A program made the position numbers and the translations under genes. DNA of 64,000 bases from a phage: sequence record OZ336093.1, one strand, 5' to 3'. The notes beneath the pieces were generated by a model, which did not search any database, was not told where the DNA came from, and worked only from the letters and a program-made list of their open reading frames with translations. Positions 35,367 to 63,556 of this stretch are shown here, piece after piece. How positions within the stretch are numbered: position 1 is the stretch's first letter; each line of letters begins with the position of its first letter.

Positions 35367-35915
35367 ATGAAGAAATTGATTCTAGGTTTGTGCTTAATGT
35401 TTACAGCACACTTATCTTATGCAGTTGACTGCCCAGAGCTATCAATTAGCCAAAAAGTAAACATGTTAAAAGCTTACCAGTATGGTGAGAATAACATGGG
35501 TAAAGGTTGGGGTATAACTCTAGCTGCTATAGCCTTACAAGAGTCAGAGTTAGGTCTGAAGGTAGAGAATAAAAAGACACATGATTATGGTATTTTCCAG
35601 AATCACTTGAAGACTGTTGTAAAGCGTAACAAAATTAGCCCTAATGTGGCTAAAAAGAAACTCTTAAAAGATTTTGACTATGCTGCGAAGGAAACGCACA
35701 AAGAACTTGAGTTTTGGACAAAGGTGCATGGTCAGCCAAAGTCAAAGAAGACTTTACAAAAAGTTTTAGCATCATATAATGCTGGGTATTCGTACAGAAT
35801 CCCTAAAGCTAAGAAGTATTCTCAAGATGTCTATAACAACATGAAAGTTATTGCTCAATGTGAATTTGCAACAAACATTTCTAAGGTAAATCATGAAAAA
35901 ATTAAGAAAGTCTGA
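35367..35915 (+). CDS. secreted lytic transglycosylase-like protein
   Basis: signal peptide MKKLILGLCLMFTAHLSYA; SLT-like motif ALQESELG...GIFQ. Confidence 0.5.
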   Translation: MKKLILGLCLMFTAHLSYAVDCPELSISQKVNMLKAYQYGENNMGKGWGITLAAIALQESELGLKVENKKTHDYGIFQNHLKTVVKRNKISPNVAKKKLLKDFDYAAKETHKELEFWTKVHGQPKSKKTLQKVLASYNAGYSYRIPKAKKYSQDVYNNMKVIAQCEFATNISKVNHEKIKKV

Positions 35916-36588
35916 TGAAGTACTGTGTCATGCTTATGACTTACATCCTCATGAGTTAGGTCTTGATTCCTGTGTATGGACTCCAGAACAGTGTAGGGAT
36001 TTTGAAGACACCGCAAGAGAGGTTGTATGTTCACTCGAAGAGTTCCACACATCAGAGCCAATTGTTAATGTTGTAGATAAAGAGACTGGACAAGCTATAG
36101 GTGTAAGTCGTGATAGTTTAGTCATAGTCAATAAAGACCTTGTAGAAAAAGGGAATCTCATCTTAGCAGATATTGATGGTGTTCTTACAAATTTTAATCA
36201 CGAAGATTGTTCAACGGAATTGACTGACGGTTCATTCTCGCAGTATACCAATCTTCTTGATTCTGTAAGAGCAAAGCCGACGTATGTTTTCAATATCATT
36301 GATGCAATTGCTAATCATGCTGCTGTTGGACTCTTGACAGCGAGAGGTGAATCTCAGAGAATACCTACTGAGATGTTTTTAAGGCATAACACAGAGCATG
36401 ATTACATGCTTTTTATGCGTGGTTTTGGGACTAACTCTATAAGTGCAGAAAGTTTGAAAGTAAGGATGATTCAGTCTTGCATTCTTCCTTACTTTAATAT
36501 AGTATGCTTTATAGAAGACACAGAGAAGAATGTTCAGAAGGTAAACAGAATACTTCCACACATCAAAACCATGTTAGTTAAACATTGA
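35893..36588 (+). CDS. hypothetical protein (possible HAD-like phosphatase)
   Basis: internal LILADIDGVLTN resembles HAD motif I; weak. Confidence 0.4.
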   Translation: MKKLRKSDEVLCHAYDLHPHELGLDSCVWTPEQCRDFEDTAREVVCSLEEFHTSEPIVNVVDKETGQAIGVSRDSLVIVNKDLVEKGNLILADIDGVLTNFNHEDCSTELTDGSFSQYTNLLDSVRAKPTYVFNIIDAIANHAAVGLLTARGESQRIPTEMFLRHNTEHDYMLFMRGFGTNSISAESLKVRMIQSCILPYFNIVCFIEDTEKNVQKVNRILPHIKTMLVKH

Positions 36589-38221: not shown

Positions 38222-38423
38222 AAAGACACGGAAACTTATCAGGTCAGCGGTGTTCATTGGACGAAATAAGGTCATACCATTTGCAGCAAATGATGTGATA
38301 GCTTACCGGAAGAACTTAGTATTCACTGACTGTTTACGTGGCTTCATCTCTGAACCATTAGAACACTTTAAAAGTCGTTGTGGTAAAGGCATCATCATTC
38401 AAGAGGTAATTATTCATGGCTGA
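38196..38423 (+). CDS. hypothetical protein
   Basis: 75 aa ORF. Confidence 0.4.
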   Translation: MKVILARDKKTRKLIRSAVFIGRNKVIPFAANDVIAYRKNLVFTDCLRGFISEPLEHFKSRCGKGIIIQEVIIHG

Positions 38424-38616
38424 TTTCTGCAAAGACTGTGCTATCGAAATGTTTGGACGTGATACAGGTGATTTAAAAGGTCTTATCACTGAAGATGACT
38501 TTAAAGCTGGCTATGCAATGCCAGTAATCTGTGAAGGTTGTGGGTGCATCTGGGTAGACCACGAAGGGCAACGTGTAAAACCTTCAGAAGATAAAGAATC
38601 TTGGGAGAGATGTTAA
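38416..38616 (+). CDS. hypothetical Cys-rich small protein
   Basis: 66 aa, CKDC...CEGCGC. Confidence 0.4.
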   Translation: MADFCKDCAIEMFGRDTGDLKGLITEDDFKAGYAMPVICEGCGCIWVDHEGQRVKPSEDKESWERC

Positions 38617-39402
38617 ATGGGTATTGTAAAAATCATCAAAGGTGATATCTTTGACGCATTTGATAAAGGTAAGTTTGACATCATTGGTCACGGTTGCAAC
38701 TGTATGAACTTCATGGGTGCAGGTATTGCAGCAACTATTTCCAAGCGTTATCCAAAAGTGTATGATACTGACACAGAAGTTTACCTGTTTGCAGGTGGCA
38801 TTCGTCACAAACCCTGTGAAAATTTACTAGGTAATTTCTCTGTAGCACGTTTAAAACAAGGCCGTATAGCTAACCTTTACACCCAACTTCATACTGGTAA
38901 AGATGCCCGATACAGTGCTTTAGAGTCATCTTTGAAACAGCTTAACAGATACTGTGAAGTTAACCAGTTGAAGAAAGTTGGTCTACCTATGATTGGTGCA
39001 GGTATCGGTGGGCTTGACCCTCAAGCTGTCACAGTTATCATTAATCAGGTGATGAAGAGTGTAGATGTTTATCTGTATGTCTATGAAGCAAAAATGTATA
39101 ATGAGTTACACTCAGGTTGGAAAAACTACTGTGAACCAGAATACTTTGCAGGTGTAGTTGTGTTCACAGATAACGAAGTTACCCTCTTCAGACGAAGAAA
39201 AGGTAAGATACATCAAAGTAACCCTCCGGTTGAAAAGATGTCTCTGAGTAACGCTCTAGTTACCCACCTGTCGAAGAGCAATCACAGGATTGCAGTAACA
39301 TTTGGCAGTGATGCAGATACTTATATCTATGCAAGAACTGATGAGGATATCGAGACAGTTTTCTCTTCACCAGAAGTTACCTTCTTAGACGCAAAGAACT
39401 AA
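38617..39402 (+). CDS. macro-domain protein (ADP-ribose binding/processing)
   Basis: N-terminal IIKGDIFDAFDKGKFDIIGHGCNCMNFMGAGIAATI matches macro-domain layout (GDI..., Gly-rich AGIA loop). Confidence 0.65.
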   Translation: MGIVKIIKGDIFDAFDKGKFDIIGHGCNCMNFMGAGIAATISKRYPKVYDTDTEVYLFAGGIRHKPCENLLGNFSVARLKQGRIANLYTQLHTGKDARYSALESSLKQLNRYCEVNQLKKVGLPMIGAGIGGLDPQAVTVIINQVMKSVDVYLYVYEAKMYNELHSGWKNYCEPEYFAGVVVFTDNEVTLFRRRKGKIHQSNPPVEKMSLSNALVTHLSKSNHRIAVTFGSDADTYIYARTDEDIETVFSSPEVTFLDAKN

Positions 39403-39469
39403 GAAACTCTGTAGAATATTCACAATAGACCAAGCCTTTCTTATCTGGTAAATTTTTCAGGTAAGGAGG

Positions 39470-39670
39470 GCTTTTTCATTTCAGAATTGTGCAGGTAGAT
39501 TTCTATAGAGAAACCTGTAGAGAAAATATTGAACTCCAAAGAGAAAATTCATTTTCAAACTGTGCAGATAATCTCCAAAGAGCTTTTTCATTTTCAAAAC
39601 GTGCAGACCCCGCTCAGGTCGGGCAAGGAAAATCATTTTAGATTTGTGCAGGTAGGTTTTTATAGAGAGC
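39470..39670. repeat. four iteron-like direct repeats (core TTTTCAnAnnTGTGCAG)
   Basis: copies centred near 39489, 39562, 39601, 39647; copies 1 and 4 share TGTGCAGGTAGrTTTyTATAGAGA. Confidence 0.6.
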
Positions 39671-39860: not shown

Positions 39861-39923
39861 TTGCATCAACGGGGAGGGAATGACCTTCCCCACTAAATAA
39901 AGTCCTAAACTGGAGATTCAAAA

Positions 39924-40307
39924 ATGGCATATCGTGCACCTAAATTCATCAACAAAGACAACTTTCGCAACGCACTGGAGAAGTCACTTGATGAGAATTT
40001 TAAAGGTAACATTATCGTTGTTCACGCATTCAATTTTAAGTATGATGTAAACGGGAATAGAATCAACCATTACACGGCAACCATGTTAGATGGTACACTT
40101 TCAAGTGAAAAAGCCGTACTAAATGCACTGGCAGGACGTGGAAAGGTATTAGTAAGATGTGATAAGAGACGTTATCAGGGCGGCGCATATGGTTATGATG
40201 ATGCTGTTTACCATCTTGAAAATATGGGCTATCAAGTAGAAAAAGCTGGAGCATCACAAATCATCGGCAGCGATGGTTATGTAACTATCTTCAAAATTAA
40301 CAAATAA
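39924..40307 (+). CDS. hypothetical protein (ORFan cassette gene)
   Basis: 127 aa; conserved leader ...CTAAACTGGAGATTCAAAA before ATG. Confidence 0.5.
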   Translation: MAYRAPKFINKDNFRNALEKSLDENFKGNIIVVHAFNFKYDVNGNRINHYTATMLDGTLSSEKAVLNALAGRGKVLVRCDKRRYQGGAYGYDDAVYHLENMGYQVEKAGASQIIGSDGYVTIFKINK

Positions 40308-40393
40308 AGTACTTTACAAGGGGCTTATAGTTCGATAAAGTAAGCCCCAGATAAAGAGCTTTACCACTAAATCCTAAATTGGAGAACTTAAAA

Positions 40394-40687
40394 ATGGCTA
40401 TTATCAAAAACGTTGTAATTACTGCAAAGACTCGTGATGACGCTCGCGTTATGGCTAAAAAGTTATGCGGGAAAGTGGTTGACAATGGAAAACAATCCGC
40501 TGTAAGGTGGGGCGTGAAGGTTGATAAACAGTTGAAGTTAAAAAATTCACCGATAAACCTTTTTACATGTGTAAACACTATCGGGAAGACAAATGTATAC
40601 ACGAAAAAGGCATACATTAGGCGCGTAGCATTAACATCCCCCATTCGTACAATGAGAAGTTATGCAAAGCTGAAAATTAACAAATAA
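40394..40687 (+). CDS. hypothetical protein (ORFan cassette gene)
   Basis: 97 aa; start set at ATG after conserved leader. Confidence 0.5.
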   Translation: MAIIKNVVITAKTRDDARVMAKKLCGKVVDNGKQSAVRWGVKVDKQLKLKNSPINLFTCVNTIGKTNVYTKKAYIRRVALTSPIRTMRSYAKLKINK

Positions 40688-40772
40688 AGTACTTTACAGG
40701 GGGCTTAAAAGTTGATATCTTAAGCCCCAGATAAAGAGCTTTACCACTCAATCCTAAACTGGAGATTCTAAA

Positions 40773-41285
40773 ATGAAAACTGTAGACGCTACCTTTGAAG
40801 TTGTAAAAGAAAAATTTTCCATCATCTACGAAGCGGTAAATTGCTACGAAGCAAGCCATAATCTCGATAATTGGGAGTTTACAAACGACCATCAAGGCGG
40901 TGTGACTGTTAAAAATCCTAACTGTCAGCATAATGATTTTAAATATGCAATCCCTTTGCATTACAGCCTTAAACAGCTTTCAAGTGACTATGCAAAACAA
41001 GGCCGGGAAAATCCATCAAAAGAGGCTTACGCAAGCTTACAAAAAGAACTAGAAAGAGATTTAGAGGCTTCAGAGTACAGCCTTGCCGCGAAAGTTGTGG
41101 ATGCAAACGGTAACACGGTTTTAGAAAGTTTTTATCTTGGTTATGCTTTCGATTGGTGCTATCGTGACGGCGATGATTTAGAGGATAGACTAAAAGAAGA
41201 GGTGAACAATTCAGACGCAGAAACTGAAGTATTAGAACGTTTGGAATCGTTGAAAGATTCAGTGATGAATATCTTTAAGAACTAA
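40773..41285 (+). CDS. hypothetical protein (ORFan cassette gene)
   Basis: 170 aa; conserved leader. Confidence 0.5.
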   Translation: MKTVDATFEVVKEKFSIIYEAVNCYEASHNLDNWEFTNDHQGGVTVKNPNCQHNDFKYAIPLHYSLKQLSSDYAKQGRENPSKEAYASLQKELERDLEASEYSLAAKVVDANGNTVLESFYLGYAFDWCYRDGDDLEDRLKEEVNNSDAETEVLERLESLKDSVMNIFKN

Positions 41286-41377
41286 ATAGATTTCTTTACA
41301 CGGGGTTATCAAGCTGGTAGGATAGCCCCAGATAAAGAGATTTATCAAATAAAGCCCTTAAACTAGGAGATTCTAAA

Positions 41378-41674
41378 ATGAAATTATCAAATCAAGTGCG
41401 TGAAAATCTGAGCAAATTACTCAACAAAATTGATTTCATTGAAACATCAAGGAATAGCCATGATGTTATGGAATGGTTACACGGCAAAATAAAAGGTCGT
41501 CGTGTAGTGATTTGCTTATGGAACAGTTGCAGGGAGTATAAAAAACCTGTATTACAAGTCAATATCTATGATGATACTTTTAAAAGTCCAGTAAAGTCTA
41601 AAAGCGATTTATTAGAATCTTATGAGATATCTGTAAATGGCAAAGTATCACGTAATGAGGTAACACCATGTTAA
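41378..41674 (+). CDS. hypothetical protein (ORFan cassette gene)
   Basis: 98 aa; conserved leader. Confidence 0.5.
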   Translation: MKLSNQVRENLSKLLNKIDFIETSRNSHDVMEWLHGKIKGRRVVICLWNSCREYKKPVLQVNIYDDTFKSPVKSKSDLLESYEISVNGKVSRNEVTPC

Positions 41675-42025: not shown

Positions 42026-42088
42026 ACACACCAACGGGGAGGGAATGACCTTCCCCACTAAATAAAGTCCTAAACTGGAGATTCAAAA

Positions 42089-42247
42089 ATGTTTTTTGCA
42101 GGTGATAAAGTTGTCTGGAATGATATAGATGACGGTTTATGTACGAAAGTTGTTGTTATCTTAGAAATTGATTATATCACTGGTGTTGCAACTGTAGCAG
42201 ATAATGATATAATCTTTGATGTCTTAATTAGTGAACTGTCAAAATAA
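42089..42247 (+). CDS. hypothetical small protein (ORFan cassette gene)
   Basis: 52 aa; not in track; own promoter/leader cassette. Confidence 0.4.
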   Translation: MFFAGDKVVWNDIDDGLCTKVVVILEIDYITGVATVADNDIIFDVLISELSK

Positions 42248-42272: not shown

Positions 42273-42545
42273 ATGTACACTACTAACAACGGTCGCACTT
42301 TAAACGTAACCCTTCGTCACTATGTGAACGGTGTAATGCACTTCGAGGATTTACAAGCCGAACAACATATCTTAGATTGGCAACTAGCAGGACTCCAAAA
42401 AACTGCTACCGGATACGGCAAAAAGATTCCAACTAGCTGGAAAGTACACTATGAAGGACGTTTGCGCAGAATTTACCAAGATGTATGCAGCAATAGCGCA
42501 TCTAGTTACATCATAGTAAAAGGTAAAAAGCTGCATTTAGTATAA
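42273..42545 (+). CDS. hypothetical protein (ORFan cassette gene)
   Basis: start at Met after leader ...CTAGGAGCTTTTAAA. Confidence 0.45.
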   Translation: MYTTNNGRTLNVTLRHYVNGVMHFEDLQAEQHILDWQLAGLQKTATGYGKKIPTSWKVHYEGRLRRIYQDVCSNSASSYIIVKGKKLHLV

Positions 42546-42630
42546 AGTACTTTACAGGGGGCTTATAAGTCTGTACAGTAAGCTCCCGATAAAGAATTTT
42601 ATCACTCAATCCTAAATTGGAGACTCTAAA

Positions 42631-43035
42631 ATGGCTATTAATAATCGTGAACTGGCTGTATTAAAAGCACGTTTGACCGTCAACCGCATCAACGTTATTA
42701 CATCAGCAGCACCGGACGAAACATTACACAACATTATCGGGAAGATTCAAGGCGTTATCTTAGACGTTGAAAATGTAAAAAACTCATTAGCCGACGTTGC
42801 AGCAGGTATCACACTAGATGGCGCACAATATGAAATGTCCGACATGTTAGGTAAATCAAAGGTAATGAATAAAGAGATTGATTTAAAAATGTTTAGATTT
42901 GCCGTGAAAGTGTGGCTATCTGTTGAGTATGACGCTAATTTTGCAATCGCTGATTTCTTTGCCACATGGTTGCAACGTAATTTGGCGAGTCATGACTTCC
43001 GTGACATCTGCGATGCAATTTACGCAGAACTCTAA
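42631..43035 (+). CDS. hypothetical protein (ORFan cassette gene)
   Basis: 134 aa; type B leader (GGGGCTTA..TAAGC hairpin). Confidence 0.5.
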   Translation: MAINNRELAVLKARLTVNRINVITSAAPDETLHNIIGKIQGVILDVENVKNSLADVAAGITLDGAQYEMSDMLGKSKVMNKEIDLKMFRFAVKVWLSVEYDANFAIADFFATWLQRNLASHDFRDICDAIYAEL

Positions 43036-43136: not shown

Positions 43137-43385
43137 ATGATGAATTTTTTAAATATCCCTGATACTTGCCGACTGTTGACGCAACCAGAAAATTTAGGCA
43201 AACCTTTCCTGTACCATATGCCAGACAATACACCAAAAACATATAGCTACACGGTTAACCGCTTTACGGGTTACGCTGCAAAAAACGGTTACAAGGTTAC
43301 TACTCAAAAAGTAACACTATTTACAAATATCGAAGAGCTTCCAACAATCGCTGTAAAACTAATATTTACGAAGAAGACGCAATAA
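43137..43385 (+). CDS. hypothetical protein (ORFan cassette gene)
   Basis: 82 aa. Confidence 0.45.
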   Translation: MMNFLNIPDTCRLLTQPENLGKPFLYHMPDNTPKTYSYTVNRFTGYAAKNGYKVTTQKVTLFTNIEELPTIAVKLIFTKKTQ

Positions 43386-43470
43386 AGTACTTTACAGGGG
43401 GCTTAAAAGTTGATATCTTAAGCCCCAGATAAAGAGCTTTACCACTAAATCCTAAACTGGAGATTCTAAA

Positions 43471-43674
43471 ATGACTATTATTAACGGCGTATCTATCGAG
43501 ACTGTACATATCAAAGACATTAAAGTTGGTGATGTAGTCCTTTCCCACGGCGTAGAGAAAACTGTCACTGCAAAGGATATCAAAGATGATTCTTTCATGG
43601 GTAGAACTCTCTTCGGTGATTCTTATTGCTTAGGTTATCTTGCAGTTTTAAAAGTTGTAAAAAATAACAAATAA
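43471..43674 (+). CDS. hypothetical protein (ORFan cassette gene)
   Basis: 67 aa; C-terminal KNNK then repeat AAGTACTTTACA. Confidence 0.45.
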   Translation: MTIINGVSIETVHIKDIKVGDVVLSHGVEKTVTAKDIKDDSFMGRTLFGDSYCLGYLAVLKVVKNNK

Positions 43675-43759
43675 AGTACTTTACAAGGGGCTTATAGTTC
43701 GATAAAGTAAGCCCCAGATAAAGAGCTTTACCAATCAATCCTAAACTGGAGATTCTAAA

Positions 43760-44302
43760 ATGAAATGTTTTCACGGTACTACTCAAGAAAATTTCCTCAA
43801 CCTGATTAATAACGGTAACAAGCCATCAGGTGCATGGAATTGTTCGGATATGGACGGCAATTTTTACGTGTATCCAGAAAATAAAATCTATGGCGACGAT
43901 GAGGAAGAGATAACATCGGAGGGCATTCAGCAAGCTCTAGGCAATGCCACTATCACCGCAGCTTTTCAGATGAAGACTCAAAATATTGTTATCTTAGAAC
44001 TCGATATTCCAGAGGATGAGCTAAATGATGATTATTCTTGTGATAATATGTCTGGCGTAGCAAGTTTTACAGAATACTTCGATTTAAATTGGATTAAAAA
44101 GGTTTACGTAACCGAGTTTAATGCGATGTTTTCACCTTTTTGTCTTCCTTCACTGGATAACCCAAATATGAACTATCTTGATGAGACATTAGAACTACTT
44201 GCTAAAAGTGTTCAACAATCGGACAGTATTCAGGTTTTTTGTGACATCATGGATACACTGACAGAAAACATCGCAGAAGAGGATTTAAAGAGCTTTTTCT
44301 AA
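43760..44302 (+). CDS. hypothetical acidic protein (ORFan cassette gene)
   Basis: 180 aa. Confidence 0.5.
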   Translation: MKCFHGTTQENFLNLINNGNKPSGAWNCSDMDGNFYVYPENKIYGDDEEEITSEGIQQALGNATITAAFQMKTQNIVILELDIPEDELNDDYSCDNMSGVASFTEYFDLNWIKKVYVTEFNAMFSPFCLPSLDNPNMNYLDETLELLAKSVQQSDSIQVFCDIMDTLTENIAEEDLKSFF

Positions 44303-58410: not shown

Positions 58411-58487
58411 CTCTGTTTAGCTCAGCTTGGTAGAGCGTTCCGTTTGGGGCGGTAAGGCCGGAGGTTCAAGTCCTCCAACAGAGACCA
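58411..58487 (+). tRNA. tRNA-Pro (anticodon TGG)
   Basis: hand-folded cloverleaf, 7 bp acceptor, T-arm GGAGG-TTCAAGT-CCTCC, CCA encoded. Confidence 0.7.
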
Positions 58488-58494
58488 AATTAAT

Positions 58495-58572
58495 GTTCCA
58501 GTAGACAAAATGGTAAAGTCACCACTCTTTCAAAGTGGATATCTGAGGGTTCAAATCCCTTCTGGAACGCCA
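58495..58572 (+). tRNA. tRNA-Glu (anticodon TTC)
   Basis: acceptor GTTCCAG/CTGGAAC, anticodon loop CTTTCAA, CCA encoded. Confidence 0.7.
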
Positions 58573-58579
58573 GTTTTGA

Positions 58580-58655
58580 CAGAAGACCAATTACAGCAAA
58601 CTTAATCTTATTCATCTGAAGGTAAATCGGACAAAGAAGAGATTTGGTCTGGTCA
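58580..58655 (+). ncRNA. structured RNA element, copy 1 (5' AGAAGACCAA / 3' TTGGTCTGG closing stem)
   Basis: conserved 5' block CAGAAGACCnnTTACAGCAA and 3' block GGTCTGG; stem covaries between copies. Confidence 0.5.
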
Positions 58656-58663
58656 TTAAGAAT

Positions 58664-58740
58664 TGCGGGTATAGAGAAAGGGCGTCTCACATGTCTCATT
58701 AGCATGGTATCGGCAGGTTCGACTCCTGCACCCGCCTCCA
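58664..58740 (+). tRNA. tRNA with anticodon CAT (Met or Ile2), irregular fold
   Basis: T-arm GCAGG-TTCGACT-CCTGC and CCA present; acceptor/D-arm register ambiguous. Confidence 0.5.
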
Positions 58741-58746
58741 AATTTG

Positions 58747-58808
58747 CAGAAGACCGTATTCAGCAACAAAATACTTTTTGCGGATAAAAGAAAAAACACG
58801 GTCTGGCA
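58747..58808 (+). ncRNA. structured RNA element, copy 2 (5' AGACCGT / 3' ACGGTCT stem)
   Basis: same conserved blocks as copy 1 with compensatory stem changes. Confidence 0.5.
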
Positions 58809-58817
58809 ATGTATTAA

Positions 58818-58894
58818 GGTTAGGAAGCACATAAGGTATGTGCGGTCGCCTGTTAAGCGAATGGCACAGGGTTCGAATCCCTGACTAACCGCCA
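58818..58894 (+). tRNA. tRNA-Asn (anticodon GTT)
   Basis: acceptor GGTTAGG/ACTAACC, loop CTGTTAA, CCA encoded. Confidence 0.7.
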
Positions 58895-58903
58895 AATTTA
58901 AAT

Positions 58904-58991
58904 GTGTCGTTATCCCGTAGATGGTAGCGGTGGGGACTGTAAATCCCTTGTCATTGAGACTCGGTAGGTTCGACTCCTACACGGCACACCA
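58904..58991 (+). tRNA. tRNA-Tyr (anticodon GTA), long variable arm
   Basis: loop CTGTAAA, long variable arm, T-arm GTAGG-TTCGACT-CCTAC, CCA encoded. Confidence 0.7.
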
Positions 58992-58996
58992 ATAAA

Positions 58997-59074
58997 GGTT
59001 ATGTAGTTTAATTTGGTTAAAATGCTCCCCTGTCACGGGAGATGATGAGGGTTCAAATCCCTTCGTAACCGCCA
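58997..59074 (+). tRNA. tRNA-Asp (anticodon GTC)
   Basis: stem CTCCC/GGGAG around loop CTGTCAC, CCA encoded. Confidence 0.7.
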
Positions 59075-59135
59075 ATTTTGAGAGGGCTATTTAGCCCCTC
59101 CCTTAAAGGGTTCTTACGAGTATCCTTTAAAGGGG

Positions 59136-59211
59136 CAGAAGACCAAATACAGCAAGAATGTATGAAATTTCAAGCCAATTTAATTTTGAAAATTTAAAAC
59201 TTGGTCTGGCT
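59136..59211 (+). ncRNA. structured RNA element, copy 3 (5' AGACCAA / 3' TTGGTCT stem)
   Basis: conserved CAGAAGACCAAATACAGCAA and TTGGTCTGG. Confidence 0.5.
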
Positions 59212-59222
59212 CAACAAATTTA

Positions 59223-59356
59223 CAGAAGACCGTTTACAGCAAAACTTAAACAATCTATTTCTCCGGTAAAGAAAAGGCGAAGGTTCGATTCCTTCACTCG
59301 GCAGATGTCGAGTTGGTGTAATGGTAGCACTTAAGATGATAAACAACGGTCTGGTA
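59223..59356 (+). ncRNA. structured RNA element, copy 4, with internal tRNA-like module
   Basis: closing stem AGACCGTT/AACGGTCT; interior carries T-arm-like GAAGG-TTCGATT-CCTTC and D-arm-like GTTGGTGTAATGGTAGCAC but no complete tRNA. Confidence 0.5.
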
Positions 59357-59503
59357 ATTATCTTTGTAGATAAGTTATTAAGCTTACCTGTGAGTATGCG
59401 ACCACAAAGGGTGAAAGGGTAAATTCTAGATTTAAACCCAACAAGGCACATCGCTACAGACCTTAAGCAAGTCTGGGTAGCTTATCTACAAAGATAATTT
59501 AAT

Positions 59504-59579
59504 GGAAGTGTAGCAGAATGGTGATGCGGCAGACTTTTAATCTGACAGGCGATGGGTTCGAATCCCTCCACTTCTACCA
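59504..59579 (+). tRNA. tRNA-Lys (anticodon TTT)
   Basis: loop CTTTTAA, T-stem with one bulged T, CCA encoded. Confidence 0.6.
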
Positions 59580-59583
59580 ATAT

Positions 59584-59660
59584 GGTTCAGTCGCAGATAA
59601 GGTAATGCAAGGGTCTCATAAGCCCTATGAATGTGGGTTCGATTCCCATCTGAACCTCCA
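59584..59660 (+). tRNA. tRNA-Met (anticodon CAT)
   Basis: loop CTCATAA flanked by GGG/CCC stem, acceptor GGTTCAG/CTGAACC, CCA encoded. Confidence 0.7.
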
Positions 59661-59661
59661 A

Positions 59662-59738
59662 GCTGGTATAGTTAAGAAGGTTATAACACTCCCCTGATAA
59701 GGGAACATCGGTGGTTCGATTCCACCTACCAGTACCAA
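59662..59738 (+). tRNA. tRNA-Ile (anticodon GAT)
   Basis: loop CTGATAA, T-arm GGTGG-TTCGATT-CCACC, CCA encoded. Confidence 0.65.
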
Positions 59739-59753
59739 TTTCAATAAAGTTGT

Positions 59754-59782
59754 TGACATTGAGATGTGACTACTTTATAGTA
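59754..59782 (+). promoter_or_regulatory. sigma70-like promoter TTGACA-N17-TATAGT inside the tRNA array
   Basis: consensus -35 with 17 bp spacer and TATAGT -10; followed by about 200 nt with no tRNA. Confidence 0.6.
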
Positions 59783-59983
59783 ACCTTAGTTTTCGTTGCG
59801 TAGCGTCTATTTTGCAAATTTAAAATAAATGCAAACGACAATGTTTTTCTGGCAGTAGCTTGATAGGCTAAACACCAGCGAGGTCTTCCAATCCCTCATC
59901 AAAGAATTTGGCGTACTAGCCCACGGTATGATTAATAAGGTGGGCATCTTTAAGGGCTTTCTAAGAGAGTCTTTAAAGATTAA

Positions 59984-60060
59984 TGCACCCTTAGTTCAAT
60001 TGGATAGAGCAACGGTCTTCTAAATCGTTAGTTACAGGTTCGAATCCTGTAGGGTGTGCC
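59984..60060 (+). tRNA. tRNA-Arg (anticodon TCT)
   Basis: loop CTTCTAA, T-arm ACAGG-TTCGAAT-CCTGT, CCA encoded. Confidence 0.7.
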
Positions 60061-60203
60061 AATTAGTTAGCAGATTACTTAGACGACCTAAGCGGGTCTT
60101 CCTGTAGGGAGGTGGTCTGTATCTCATGTTTTCCAGAACATGTAAATAATCTGAGAAGGGGCTTTACAGTGTTGAGATAATACGGTAAGCTTCGAATTAT
60201 AGT

Positions 60204-60286
60204 ATGGGACGATGTTAAGACTCTAAGGCATGAGCAACGGCCTCCAAAACCGTTTCAAAGGGGTTCAAATCCTCCGTCCCATGCCA
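60204..60286 (+). tRNA. tRNA-Trp-like (anticodon CCA), irregular
   Basis: anticodon arm resembles E. coli tRNA-Trp (CTCCAAA loop); about 7 extra nt between acceptor and D-stem. Confidence 0.45.
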
Positions 60287-60299
60287 AAGTCTTATTAGG

Positions 60300-60387
60300 G
60301 GTAGGTAGCGGCTAATGGCAGCCAAACAGTCTTGAAAACTGTTGCCACTGTAGAGATACGGTGAGGGTTCGACTCCTTTACTTACCG
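60300..60387 (+). tRNA. tRNA-Ser (anticodon TGA), long variable arm
   Basis: loop CTTGAAA, long variable arm; CCA not encoded. Confidence 0.65.
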
Positions 60388-60544
60388 CCTAATAAGATTT
60401 AAAGCCAAGCTTCATTCGGATGTTGCTTTGGTATACCGCGTGTATTGTTGTACGCACTGATAAAGCACCTAGTAGGTGTCACGGAGAAGAGATAATATCA
60501 AGCTCTCCAAAGGTTCTAGTCACCGGATTAAACAAGACTATGCA

Positions 60545-60568
60545 AAGACCTTTTTAGGTCTTTTTAGA
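60545..60568 (+). terminator. hairpin terminator within tRNA array
   Basis: AAGACCT-TTTT-AGGTCTT followed by TTTT. Confidence 0.5.
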
Positions 60569-60645
60569 GGGCTTCTAAGGTTATTACAGCTTGTTGTGGA
60601 ACCTTGTTGCTTAGGTTCTTAGAAGTTCTCTAAAAAGATTTAATG

Positions 60646-60723
60646 GGAGATTGACGGTAATTGGTAAACCTACCATCCTTAGAAGTTGGTGTTTGAGGGT
60701 TCGAATCCCTTGTCTCCTACCAA
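60646..60723 (+). tRNA. tRNA with anticodon TAG (nominally Leu) on a short-variable-arm scaffold
   Basis: loop CTTAGAA, acceptor GGGAGAT/GTCTCCT, CCA encoded; weak D-stem. Confidence 0.5.
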
Positions 60724-60730
60724 ATTAATG

Positions 60731-60806
60731 CAGGTGTAGCAAAATGGTTATGCGGCTGACTCTTAATCAGTAAGACGATGGGTTCAATTCCCTCCACCTG
60801 TACCAG
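60731..60806 (+). tRNA. tRNA-Lys (anticodon CTT)
   Basis: loop CTCTTAA; paralogous to the TTT copy incl. bulged T-stem; CCA encoded. Confidence 0.6.
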
Positions 60807-60812
60807 ACATTG

Positions 60813-60888
60813 GGGATGTAGTTTACATGGTTAAAACATAAGTTTTGCAAACTTAAGTACAGGGTTCAATTCCCTGCTTCTCCACCAA
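60813..60888 (+). tRNA. tRNA-Ala (anticodon TGC)
   Basis: D-stem GTTT/AAAC, loop TTTGCAA, T-arm CAGGG-TTCAATT-CCCTG, CCA encoded. Confidence 0.7.
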
Positions 60889-60894
60889 TTAGTG

Positions 60895-60969
60895 CATCCA
60901 TAGTTTAAACGGGAAAATTACAGTCTTCCAAACTGAGGTTGAGGGTTCGATTCCCTCTGGATGCTCCAA
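60895..60969 (+). tRNA. tRNA-Gly (anticodon TCC)
   Basis: loop CTTCCAA, acceptor GCATCCA/TGGATGC, CCA encoded. Confidence 0.65.
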
Positions 60970-60976
60970 ATTAATG

Positions 60977-61053
60977 CTGCTTTCGTATAATTGGCTATTA
61001 CACATCCCTTGTAAGGATGGAAATGCGGGTTCGAGTCCTGTGAGCAGCACCAA
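60977..61053 (+). tRNA. tRNA-Thr (anticodon TGT)
   Basis: stem CATCC/GGATG around loop CTTGTAA, CCA encoded. Confidence 0.7.
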
Positions 61054-61055
61054 TT

Positions 61056-61147
61056 CAGAGGTCAAGTGAAAGACCGCTGGTGTCAACTGAAGACCGTAAC
61101 AAATTCCACGGAGTTGAGTTAGCGGCACAACTTCAGACCTCTTTCAC
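61056..61147 (+). ncRNA. possible small structured RNA between tRNA-Thr and tRNA-Val
   Basis: about 90 nt with internal complementarity (AGTGAAAGA recurs; GAGGTC pairs with GACCTC) and no tRNA fold. Confidence 0.3.
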
Positions 61148-61222
61148 ACTCGCTTAGTTTATATGGTAAAACATCACCCTTACAAGATGAAGAAAAAGGT
61201 TCAAGTCCTTTAGTGAGTACCA
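61148..61222 (+). tRNA. tRNA-Val (anticodon TAC)
   Basis: loop CTTACAA, T-arm AAAGG-TTCAAGT-CCTTT, CCA encoded. Confidence 0.65.
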
Positions 61223-61223
61223 T

Positions 61224-61301
61224 GTTCCAGTATCCCAATTGGCAGAGGATGCAAGCTCAAACCTTGTATTAGTGACGGTTCGAATCCGTCTTGGAACACC
61301 A
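61224..61301 (+). tRNA. tRNA with anticodon CAA (nominally Leu) on a short-variable-arm scaffold
   Basis: stem GCAAG/CTTGT around loop CTCAAAC, T-arm GACGG-TTCGAAT-CCGTC, CCA encoded. Confidence 0.55.
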
Positions 61302-61306
61302 ATTTT

Positions 61307-61382
61307 GCAGGATTAGTTCAAATGGATAGAGCAACAGTCTACGAAGCTGTTAATAGGGGTTCGAATCCCTTATCCTGCGCCA
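61307..61382 (+). tRNA. tRNA-Arg (anticodon ACG)
   Basis: loop CTACGAA, D-arm GTTC..GAGC, CCA encoded. Confidence 0.7.
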
Positions 61383-61399
61383 GATAAAAAGGTGATACT

Positions 61400-61642
61400 A
61401 TGCAAACATTAACAGTAGTTGAACATGAAAACTGTGAGAATATTGAGTTTGTCAGGGTCATTGGTGTTGAACACCACATTTTCTTAAAAGTAGGGTACTT
61501 ATGTGACCCCGCTAGAGTAGAAAGATTTATACGTGATTGTTTTGGTGGTAGACAGCTAAAGAGTGTTATTTTTGAGACAGTTTTACCAGAAGGTTTAGAA
61601 ACGAATAATAACATTTATCTCCTTACAAGGATTAGACGATGA
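61400..61642 (+). CDS. hypothetical protein embedded in tRNA array
   Basis: 80 aa ORF starting 18 nt after tRNA-Arg. Confidence 0.35.
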   Translation: MQTLTVVEHENCENIEFVRVIGVEHHIFLKVGYLCDPARVERFIRDCFGGRQLKSVIFETVLPEGLETNNNIYLLTRIRR

Positions 61643-62196
61643 GATATTTAAAATATGCTTCATGGATTTTCCTAGCTTTGCTAGAACCATTAGCAGCAAC
61701 CTTAGCAGTTATCTTAGCACCTTTCGTAGTTCCATTTTACAGTGAGAAGAAAGGCCACTTACCTTTCGGATTTAGATGGATGGAGACATATGACAACCCA
61801 ATTGATGGTGACGAAGGTCATATCGAACGATGGGCTAAGATTAGAAAGATTGGTAAGCTGGGTGTCTACATGCAGAGAGTCGGATGGCTCTGGAGAAACA
61901 AAGCTTATAACTTCTCTTACCATGTATTAGGAAGAGATGTAAAAGATGTTACTAAGTGGAAAGGTAATATCAACGTAAGTTCTGACCCTGAAGATAATCA
62001 GACAGGTTATCTCCTAATGTGGAACAGTAATGCTTGGGGATTATTCGCTTTTATCCCATCAATTAAAGTCTTTGGTAAACAGTTTTACTGGAGAATTTAT
62101 ATTGGATGGAAACTAAAAAGTGTTGTCCCAGAAGAAAGAGCATTCTCAAGGGAAAGAGTTATGTTGGCATTCTTTATTCATCCACTGAGAAAGTAA
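61639..62196 (+). CDS. hypothetical membrane protein embedded in tRNA array
   Basis: 185 aa, N-terminal TM segment, Trp-rich. Confidence 0.45.
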   Translation: MRYLKYASWIFLALLEPLAATLAVILAPFVVPFYSEKKGHLPFGFRWMETYDNPIDGDEGHIERWAKIRKIGKLGVYMQRVGWLWRNKAYNFSYHVLGRDVKDVTKWKGNINVSSDPEDNQTGYLLMWNSNAWGLFAFIPSIKVFGKQFYWRIYIGWKLKSVVPEERAFSRERVMLAFFIHPLRK

Positions 62197-62204
62197 AGAT
62201 TTAA

Positions 62205-62280
62205 AGGGGATTAGTTTACAAGGTTAAAACCTCGGTCTTTGAAATCGAAGAAGTTGGTTCAATTCCAACATCCCCCGCCA
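62205..62280 (+). tRNA. tRNA-Gln (anticodon TTG)
   Basis: loop CTTTGAA, weak 1-72 pair as typical for tRNA-Gln, CCA encoded. Confidence 0.65.
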
Positions 62281-62282
62281 AT

Positions 62283-62361
62283 ACTCCATTACTCCAATTG
62301 GCAGAGAGGCCAGACTTAAAATCTGTGTTATGTATCGGTTCGAATCCGATATGGAGTACCA
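62283..62361 (+). tRNA. tRNA with anticodon TAA (nominally Leu) on a short-variable-arm scaffold
   Basis: loop CTTAAAA, T-arm ATCGG-TTCGAAT-CCGAT, about 7 nt variable loop, CCA encoded. Confidence 0.55.
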
Positions 62362-62366
62362 AATTT

Positions 62367-62442
62367 AGCGGTATAGCATAACTGGCAATGCAACAGTCTC
62401 TGAAGCTGTCCTATTAAGGTTCAAATCTTTATGCCGCTGCCA
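62367..62442 (+). tRNA. tRNA-Gln (anticodon CTG)
   Basis: loop CTCTGAA, D-stem GCAT/ATGC, CCA encoded. Confidence 0.6.
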
Positions 62443-62471
62443 CTTCTAAGGGTTCTTACGAGAGTCCTTAA

Positions 62472-62547
62472 ATGTGGCCTTATCATAAATGGTAATGACC
62501 CATGCTGTGAACATGGTCTATACGGGTTCAAATCCCGTAGGTCACCC
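62472..62547 (+). tRNA. tRNA-His (anticodon GTG)
   Basis: loop CTGTGAA, discriminator C, CCA encoded. Confidence 0.65.
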
Positions 62548-62553
62548 CAATTT

Positions 62554-62629
62554 ATAGTCCAAGTAGCTTATATGGTTAAAGCGCGTGTCTGAAAAACATG
62601 AGAAGAGGGTTCAAATCCCACTGGACTAC
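62554..62629 (+). tRNA. tRNA-Phe-like (anticodon GAA), irregular
   Basis: loop CTGAAAA, D-stem GCTT/AAGC; acceptor and T-stem register off by one. Confidence 0.5.
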
Positions 62630-62647
62630 CAATTTCAAAGGTGCTTA

Positions 62648-63382
62648 ATGAAAGAGATGACAGAACAAGGTAAGGAGATTTTTAATCTCTTAAAAACCGG
62701 TAAAGGGTTTTCTAACCCACTTATTACTGGTGCAGCAGTTCTCGGTGGAACCGTAGCTGCTTCTACATCACTTGTAAGCTCTATTAGTTCTGTAACAGAC
62801 CCTACAATGCAGGAGAAACTTGTTGCTGCTGGACTTACAACAGTCCTTCTAAACAGCTTTACAACAAGCCTTACAAGCACTACAGCAACTACTAAGACCC
62901 TGACAGACTACGGTCAAAAATCTATTGATGAGTTTTCATCACGTATGCAGGTAGCAAAGGGATATTCCAATGTTATGGGTGCAGCAGGAGAACAAGTTGG
63001 TTGTACACCGTTCAGTGGTATTATGGGTGTTGCTACAGAATATGGTCAAAAAGCTATTGATACGATTAACAGTACACTAGAGAGTGTTAACAATGTATTA
63101 AGTGACTTACAAGACGCTATTGACAAGGGTCTTGATACTGTTTCTGATTTAGCTAACCAAGCTGTCAGTAAGATTAATGAAGGTATCTCAAAGATTACAG
63201 CTTATGCAGATGAAGTTGTGCAGATGATTGAAGAAGAAGCTGCCCTTATTGCAGAGTACCTTAAAACGAATATCAATGGGTTCTTAGCAGGTATCTTACC
63301 AGACTGGTTTGATGATGCCTGTAAAACTGGTGTAATTGACACTATTGCAACACCAGAAATGAAGAACGCATTACAGAAATAA
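62648..63382 (+). CDS. hypothetical Ser/Thr-rich protein embedded in tRNA array
   Basis: start moved to first ATG downstream of tRNA-Phe (track start 62585 overlaps the tRNA). Confidence 0.45.
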   Translation: MKEMTEQGKEIFNLLKTGKGFSNPLITGAAVLGGTVAASTSLVSSISSVTDPTMQEKLVAAGLTTVLLNSFTTSLTSTTATTKTLTDYGQKSIDEFSSRMQVAKGYSNVMGAAGEQVGCTPFSGIMGVATEYGQKAIDTINSTLESVNNVLSDLQDAIDKGLDTVSDLANQAVSKINEGISKITAYADEVVQMIEEEAALIAEYLKTNINGFLAGILPDWFDDACKTGVIDTIATPEMKNALQK

Positions 63383-63383
63383 T

Positions 63384-63476
63384 GGAAGATTAACCCTAAA
63401 AGGTAAGGGAGCAGTTTGCTAAACTGCCAGTAGCTGAGAAATCGGTGTACCAGTTCAAGTCTGGTATCTTCCTCCA
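63384..63476 (+). tRNA. tRNA-Ser (anticodon GCT), long variable arm
   Basis: stem GCAGT/ACTGC around loop TTGCTAA, long variable arm, CCA encoded. Confidence 0.7.
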
Positions 63477-63480
63477 ATTT

Positions 63481-63556
63481 GAATCCGTGACAGAAATGGC
63501 TATGTGCCTGTCTGCAAAACAGGTTTATAAGGGTTCGAGTCCCTTCGGATTCTCCA
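63481..63556 (+). tRNA. tRNA-Cys (anticodon GCA)
   Basis: stem CCTGT/ACAGG around loop CTGCAAA, CCA encoded. Confidence 0.7.

Follow-up and report, generated by a model that had tools for sequence, protein, structure and literature searches.

Felix O1-like phages carry a stand-alone gene for a macro-domain protein that is annotated in related records as 'phosphatase', 'putative phosphatase' or 'hypothetical protein', and the question raised by this locus is what such a gene does for the phage. The copy considered here lies in a stretch of 64,000 nucleotides (record OZ336093.1), the whole of which is referred to below as the window. The gene probably codes for an AdfM/Tk.4-type thymidine-ADP-ribose glycohydrolase, an orphan that counters DarT2, a reading that draws on its predicted clade, its homology to Tk.4 of phage T4, the genetics of that gene in T4, and the activity of SCO6735, a bacterial enzyme with the same Gln-type site. 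Several other roles for the domain have to be weighed against this one, and the C-terminal third of the protein requires separate treatment.

The source genome is that of a Felix O1-like myovirus (Felixounavirus), and over the 6 kb around the gene dozens of other members of this genus, from Escherichia, Salmonella and Shigella, show 92-97% identity to it. At the nucleotide level the macro gene is kept in 258 phage records. Across 16 distinct alleles, dN/dS for the whole gene is 0.105. Elsewhere in the window, 26 tRNA genes are clustered on the plus strand (58411-63556), as is typical of Felix O1-like phages. The features of the locus are collected in Table 1.

Table 1. Features of the macro-domain gene and its surroundings (window positions).
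Feature	Position	Strand	Basis or remark
Shine-Dalgarno-like GGGAGAG, then TAA of the upstream 66-aa ORF abutting the macro-gene ATG	38603..38616	+	read from sequence
Complete CDS, 261 aa plus stop, ATG start	38617..39402	+	ORF list; macro domain followed by orphan C-terminal domain
Macro domain, aa 1-160, predicted TARG1/DarG/SCO6735 class, Tk.4/AdfM-type	38617..39096	+	
Asn28 codon (= DarG2 Asn22, phiKZ AdfM Asn23)	38698..38700	+	family-invariant; aligned to AdfM/DarG Asn column
Gly-rich loop 1, M33-G-A-G-I-A38	38713..38730	+	M33, G36 and A38 invariant in phage members, TARG1, DarG and AdfM
N86-L-Y-T-Q90 motif	38872..38886	+	profile-TARG1 alignment, BLASTP to phiKZ AdfM, multiple alignment
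Gly-rich loop 2, I126-G-A-G-I-G-G-L-D134	38992..39018	+	invariant in full-length family
Orphan C-terminal domain (aa 166-261), modelled as six beta-strands with a short helix	39112..39399	+	structure model
Terminator-like hairpin, 17 pairs, with T-run	39432..39483	+	consensus scan
Intergenic repeats of ~100 nt between small ORFs	40293-40393, 40673-40773, 41286-41383, 42542-42640, 43382-43484, 43661-43766		
Second repeat, 63 nt, present twice: hairpin GGGGAGGGAATGACCTTCCCC and RBS	39864-39926, 42029-42091		

The macro gene and the 66-aa ORF immediately upstream appear to be translationally coupled. This small ORF (38416-38616) is Cys-rich (CxxC ... CxxCxC) and zinc-ribbon-like, belongs to PHROG 2210, and occurs in Felix-like loci only. 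A conserved small-ORF partner for the macro gene was considered and rejected, the upstream ORFs being found in Felix-like synteny alone. At the 3' end, the hairpin and T-run that come after the gene probably form a transcription terminator, so that the macro gene would close its transcription unit. A non-coding gap of 520 bp follows, in which Rfam gives no matches, and from 39924 an array of small ORFs with ~100-nt repeats begins; those repeat copies that were inspected hold a hairpin together with a promoter-like or RBS segment. At 39473-39668 the gap contains three to four copies of a ~22-nt motif, TTTTCATTTYNRAWHTGTGCAG (three matches where none are expected), which is found nowhere else in the window, and a polypyrimidine tract, CCCTCTCCCCC, lies near these copies.

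A macro domain was called in the preliminary description of the locus, and profile searches against macro-domain families bear this out with clear matches. Pfam Macro (PF01661) aligns to residues 25-141 over profile positions 2-117 of 118, scoring 30 bits against a gathering cut-off of 22 (E = 5.3e-7), and the protein matches PHROG 335 at 5.7e-115. Among curated families, it is the macro half of the DarG antitoxin that the protein matches best (NCBIfam, 9.1e-15; PADLOC, 5.7e-15). A family profile built from 17 members finds human TARG1 at 1.4e-18, SCO6735 at 1.1e-15, BT1257 and 2AFC at ~1e-15, Poa1p at 6.3e-15, and Mycobacterium tuberculosis DarG at 8.3e-15, with a MacroD-type structure at just 1e-3. 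The AlphaFold model (mean pLDDT 79, with the macro blocks at ~80-93) has the macro fold and superposes on TARG1 with a TM score of 0.85, on BT1257 with 0.81, on Thermus aquaticus DarG with 0.80, and on Poa1p with ~0.75; macro structures overall give 0.73-0.85, and residues ~1-160 alone take part in the superposition. By these profile scores the window protein is placed in the TARG1/DarG/SCO6735 (ALC1-like) clade and not in the MacroD clade, a class call that compares TARG1, SCO6735, Poa1p and DarG with a MacroD-type structure.

The residues that are invariant throughout the family are H25, G26, N28, M33, G36, A38, N86-L-Y-T-Q90, P124, G127, and G129. Asn28 corresponds to an asparagine with an active-site role in DarG2 and phiKZ AdfM (PMC13309987). 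A catalytic Asn/Asp and Gly-rich loop residues had been proposed as the features to look for in this domain. A catalytic Asn/Asp is what a MacroD-type enzyme would have; here the asparagine (Asn28) and both loops are conserved, but the key position is occupied by Gln90. Where the profile aligns to TARG1 without gaps, Gln90 stands at the position of TARG1 Lys84 and Gly131 at that of Asp125. BLASTP to phiKZ gp104 (AdfM) sets Gln90 opposite Lys78 and Asn28 opposite Asn23, and the residue pairing is the same when TARG1, AdfM and the macro domains of two DarG proteins are aligned together with the family, with the catalytic Lys80 of DarG in the Gln90 column and a Gly, as in the phage protein, where TARG1 has Asp125. 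Gln90 also takes the position of Gln85 in SCO6735, an equivalence that is transitive via TARG1 and DarG and does not come from direct alignment. SCO6735 efficiently strips ssDNA of thymidine-linked ADP-ribose and rescues cells from DarT toxicity, and its Q85A variant is inactive (PMC9411070). Of the 79 viral loci from IMG/VR, all retrieved with two peptide patterns that lack the NxYTQ motif, 77 have an N-x-[YF]-T-Q-type motif. Its last three residues read YTQ in T4-like and rV5-like members and YGQ in the one from a Pakpunavirus. Judged from these alignments, glutamine at the catalytic-Lys position is a trait of the whole Tk.4-type phage family.

This family is large. In a tblastn search with the macro domain, 3,029 of 50,697 phage records matched (~6%), including T4-like phages (where the gene lies beside vs), rV5-like phages, Pakpunaviruses, and jumbo phages. 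In T4 the family is represented by Tk.4, a protein of 155 aa annotated as 'phosphatase; contains A1pp phosphatase motif'. It is 35% identical to the window protein over aa 3-157 (E = 5e-24), and HGCNC, NLYTQ and IGAGIG occur in both. A HIDEN-SEQ screen reported in a preprint identified tk.4 as the single T4 gene that is depleted, or conditionally essential, on a DarTG2 host; a clean tk.4 knockout is DarTG2-sensitive and the gene was named adfM, on evidence that is genetic and confined to T4 (bioRxiv 10.1101/2025.11.20.689424). This result explains the earlier finding that T4 lacking AdfA and AdfN remains DarTG2-resistant (PMC11825919). Biochemically, phiKZ gp104, the AdfM of a chimallivirus, removes ADP-ribose made by DarT2 from DNA (PMC13309987), and of the enzymes in the panels assayed, only those of the class comprising DarG, TARG1, fly Targ1/3, and SCO6735 hydrolyzed thymidine-ADPr robustly (PMC12879935). 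When the complete genome of the DarTG2-sensitive phage T5 was screened with the family profile, there were no matches at E<=10, and the same profile recovered all of the T4-like, rV5-like, Pakpunavirus and phiKZ controls; the resulting T5/T4 presence-absence correlation comprises two phages only, the DarTG2-sensitive phages being taken from later papers. Within T5, the gene T5.105 (L087:7588-8094), labelled 'Sir2', was ruled out, by the checks made, both as a macro domain and as a Sir2 protein, and has a HAD-type DIDGVLN motif.

No ART or DarT gene is found among the neighbours of the macro gene, which consist of spanins and phage ORFs of no assigned function, with no Pfam matches; the gene stands alone, with no cognate darT beside it. 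Domain identity, clade, motif conservation, Tk.4 homology, purifying selection and the lack of a partner toxin gene are grounded in the present analysis, and the anti-DarTG2 phenotype of Tk.4 and the activity of the Gln-type SCO6735 are taken from the literature. Reversal of DarT-type DNA ADP-ribosylation, raised in the preliminary description as one possible role, thus emerges by homology as the best-supported function, given the TARG1/DarG/SCO6735 class, the 35% identity to Tk.4, and the tk.4 deletion phenotype. By analogy, the window protein would have the same substrate and phenotype as Tk.4. Its substrate specificity could nevertheless differ, as identity is just 35% to Tk.4 and 25% to phiKZ AdfM, and broader or additional substrates are possible since presence in ~6% of phage records may exceed what selection by DarTG2 alone would account for. 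The extra C-terminal domain, with no counterpart in Tk.4, AdfM or SCO6735, is likewise a point against the anti-DarT2 reading.

In the proposed mechanism, the protein would be made from an early or middle gene block of the Felix O1-like phage. Its N-terminal macro domain would bind the ADP-ribose that host DarT2 has placed on thymidines of single-stranded phage DNA and would then hydrolyze the N-glycosidic link of thymidine-ADP-ribose, restoring replicable DNA and so defeating the DarTG2 abortive-infection defence. Catalysis would probably follow the mode of SCO6735: Gln90 would position the distal ribose so that an activated water can attack it, and Asn28 and both Gly-rich loops would assist. 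A mode that depends on Lys, as in DarG and TARG1, is unlikely because the lysine is absent. The C-terminal beta domain would serve as an accessory module.

Comparison with characterized systems shows how far each of them resembles the window protein. T4 Tk.4 is the closest in kind: it too belongs to PHROG 335, has a Gln-type site, and is an orphan gene lying in the early region in a large, virulent myovirus of enterobacteria. It is, however, a single domain, whereas the window protein has ~100 extra C-terminal residues that form a separate beta domain and, at 261 aa, does not match the size of the single-domain AdfM/Tk.4-type proteins (about 150-170 aa). AdfM of phiKZ is likewise an orphan macro domain of a phage, of DarG-like class and with the Asn conserved, but its active site is of the Lys type (FPTK, with Lys78), it is much nearer to DarG than the window protein is (9.4e-25 to M. 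tuberculosis DarG), and it is a single-domain protein imported into the phage nucleus (PMC13309987). SCO6735 of Streptomyces coelicolor (PDB 5E3B) shares the macro class, the Gln site and the lack of the TARG1 Asp, and is a stand-alone thymidine-ADPr DNA hydrolase that neutralizes DarT (PMC9411070); it differs in being a single-domain, DNA-damage-inducible housekeeping gene product of a bacterium. DarG2 of T. aquaticus and M. tuberculosis (PDB 5M31, 5M3E, 5M3I, 7OMU) also has an N-terminal macro domain in a two-domain layout, but its catalytic residue is Lys80, it binds DarT through its C-terminal domain, and it is encoded beside darT, whereas the window gene has no toxin gene. Against the DarG equivalog model NF048014 the window protein reaches 54.7 bits, compared with a cut-off of 250, and covers only model positions 2-152 of 338. 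Human TARG1/OARD1 (PDB 4J5R) is the best match in both sequence and structure among solved structures and is also known to hydrolyze thymidine-ADPr (PMC12879935). Its Lys84/Asp125 dyad is nonetheless replaced by Gln90/Gly131 in the window protein, and the Asn found in the phage protein and in DarG is a Ser in TARG1.

A different substrate is suggested by the names the gene has been given. The domain could hydrolyze small-molecule derivatives of ADP-ribose, as a Poa1p-like ADP-ribose-1''-phosphate phosphatase or an O-acetyl-ADP-ribose deacetylase, feeding ADP-ribose into a phage NAD+ salvage pathway of PRPP synthetase (Prs) and NAMPT. Consistent with this are the Poa1p match and superposition given above and the labels in the records, 'phosphatase' in relatives of the window and 'O-acetyl-ADP-ribose deacetylase' on one tblastn match elsewhere. 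The Poa1p match does not surpass those to TARG1, SCO6735 or DarG, however, and the 'phosphatase' label is inherited from the name of the A1pp motif and not from an assay. Genomic context also bears on such a role, the gene having been described as standing next to NAD+-metabolism genes. This proximity proves weak: the prs and NAMPT genes lie 8 kb upstream on the same strand, separated from the macro gene by rIIA/rIIB, a lysin, a Pnk-like gene and spanins. There are isolated cases of closer adjacency; a Pakpunavirus macro gene (L006:301-780; YGQ) lies downstream of a nicotinate phosphoribosyltransferase gene, with one small ORF between the two, and that of Vibrio phage Chester adjoins a PRPP synthetase gene. 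When the window NAMPT and Prs were searched by tblastn against the 79 viral loci, a NAMPT homologue lay within 10 kb in none of the 54 diverse loci (L032-L085), and a Prs homologue in only one. NAD-salvage linkage is rejected as a general association, NAMPT proximity being limited to Felix-like synteny. Phage tRNA repair is not known to produce Appr-1''-p, which counts against a small-molecule substrate, and the sole phenotype found for T4 Tk.4 is specific to DarTG2. Since adjacency to NAD genes is isolated among diverse loci, a salvage or 'phosphatase' role is a minor rival to the anti-DarT2 reading and is quite improbable.

Across the diverse viral contigs a rIIA/rIIB neighbourhood is commoner than a NAD-salvage neighbourhood, and rIIA/rIIB often lie within a few kb of the Tk.4-type macro gene and are sometimes adjacent to it (L056, L073, L074, L067-L072, L078 and others). 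Related records name the ORF at 35893-36588 'polynucleotide kinase', but no Pfam model matches it at 1e-3 and it shows only a HAD-type DIDGVL motif.

The enzyme might instead reverse ADP-ribosylation of protein or RNA and not of DNA, for example marks left by CmdT or other ADP-ribosyltransferases. TARG1 and SCO6735 also strip protein-linked ADP-ribose (PMC9411070), and defence systems that ADP-ribosylate mRNA exist. Against this, the Tk.4 screen result is DarTG2-specific and no ART gene adjoins the window gene. Reversal of RNA-adenine (N6) ADP-ribosylation is in particular unlikely because CmdTAC still robustly restricts T-even phages that carry Tk.4. Taken as a whole, a protein or RNA target has little probability. 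A role against Thoeris immunity, as a sponge or hydrolase for ADP-ribose-based signals (the His-ADPR of type II Thoeris, or gcADPR), would accord with ThsA effectors binding His-ADPR through macro domains and with the fact that binders of NAD-derived molecules are a common phage counter to signalling immunity; it is very unlikely, since the nearest relatives are DNA- or protein-directed hydrolases and not ThsA-type sensors, the conserved Gln/Asn catalytic set favours an enzyme acting on a glycosidic adduct, and there is neither an experimental nor a genomic tie to Thoeris. Least probable of all, and to be set aside, is a catalytically dead reader that binds ADP-ribose to shield modified DNA, or binds DarT: the replacements at Lys84/Lys80 and Asp125 and the DarT inhibition by interaction that inactive SCO6735, DarG and TARG1 mutants retain would allow it, but SCO6735, which also has Gln there, hydrolyzes thymidine-ADPr fast and needs this residue to do so (PMC9411070), which argues that the window domain is not dead, DarG also does without the Asp, and the Gln is invariant across a family that includes the functional Tk.4.

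An anti-DarT2 glycohydrolase would account for the macro half of the protein. The C-terminal 100 residues had been left unassigned, and they remain an orphan, with no relatives by sequence or fold in the searches made. Modelled alone, residues 166-261 form a confident small fold (pLDDT 82, pTM 0.77). An exhaustive phmmer search over 1.84 billion representatives returned the domain's own family, one fragment and one spurious repeat match; a search of a viral structure library found only the orthologue in phage SUSP2; and family libraries gave no confident match except its own PHROG 335. A Pfam match of the full protein to NAC is below threshold (E = 0.14), and comparison with the C-terminal, DarT-binding domain of DarG detects no similarity. 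The domain is under purifying selection, with a dN/dS of 0.20 versus 0.07 for the macro half (16 alleles), and it diverges fast, identity between lineages being 13-24% compared with 35-50% for the macro domain. It is confined to Felix-like and related contigs, most family members being macro-only proteins of 147-195 aa. Other extensions occur within the family, namely a protein of 339 aa that combines PF20274 with Macro (P0020) and metagenomic ORFs of 209-249 aa (L047, L060, L081). The domain has no consistent charge bias, whereas the macro domain is basic throughout the family (pI 8.3-9.3); no case for a DNA mimic or a DNA binder arises from its charge. A tentative suggestion, and a rather unlikely one, is that it is a second antitoxin module, either a binder or inhibitor of DarT2 (a functional analogue of DarG with an unrelated domain) or a tether to single-stranded DNA at the replication fork.

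Alleles of the gene are also exchanged. In one Felixounavirus contig (L029) the flanks are ~94% identical to the window in nucleotide sequence, and the proteins of the adjacent 66-aa ORF share 98.5% identity. All nucleotide similarity is nonetheless lost from ~38758 to ~39588 of the window (L029:10142-10934), a segment that comprises the body of the macro gene and its terminator, with the break ~140 nt into the gene. The replacement is a divergent allele of the same two-domain layout (P0009 type), 39-40% identical in amino acid sequence over the full length and 50% over the macro domain alone. Similarly, many T-even genomes are alike only over the first ~150 nt of tk.4 (81-88% identity; L089:3423-3890), the rest being beyond megablast detection, which suggests that tk.4 exists in these phages as discrete allele classes. 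The swaps in L029 and in T-even phages fit an accessory, arms-race gene. Were the C-terminal domain indeed a second antitoxin module, co-evolution with host toxins would lie behind its fast divergence and the exchange of alleles.

From its sequence, the window protein appears to be an ordinary further member of a known anti-defence family, the AdfM/Tk.4-type macrodomains, with one unexplained domain; what is new here is the family-wide Gln-type active site and the orphan C-terminal domain of the Felix-type protein. This domain is small, constrained, well-folding in the model and without relatives found, and so constitutes a defined target for study. The Gln-type, SCO6735-like site across the Tk.4-type family (about 3,000 phage records) gives a mechanistic prediction for the enzymology of AdfM. 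For the Felix O1-like phages, among which are candidates for therapy and biocontrol, the analysis offers a probable function, protection from DarTG2, for a gene labelled 'phosphatase' or 'hypothetical' in hundreds of genomes.
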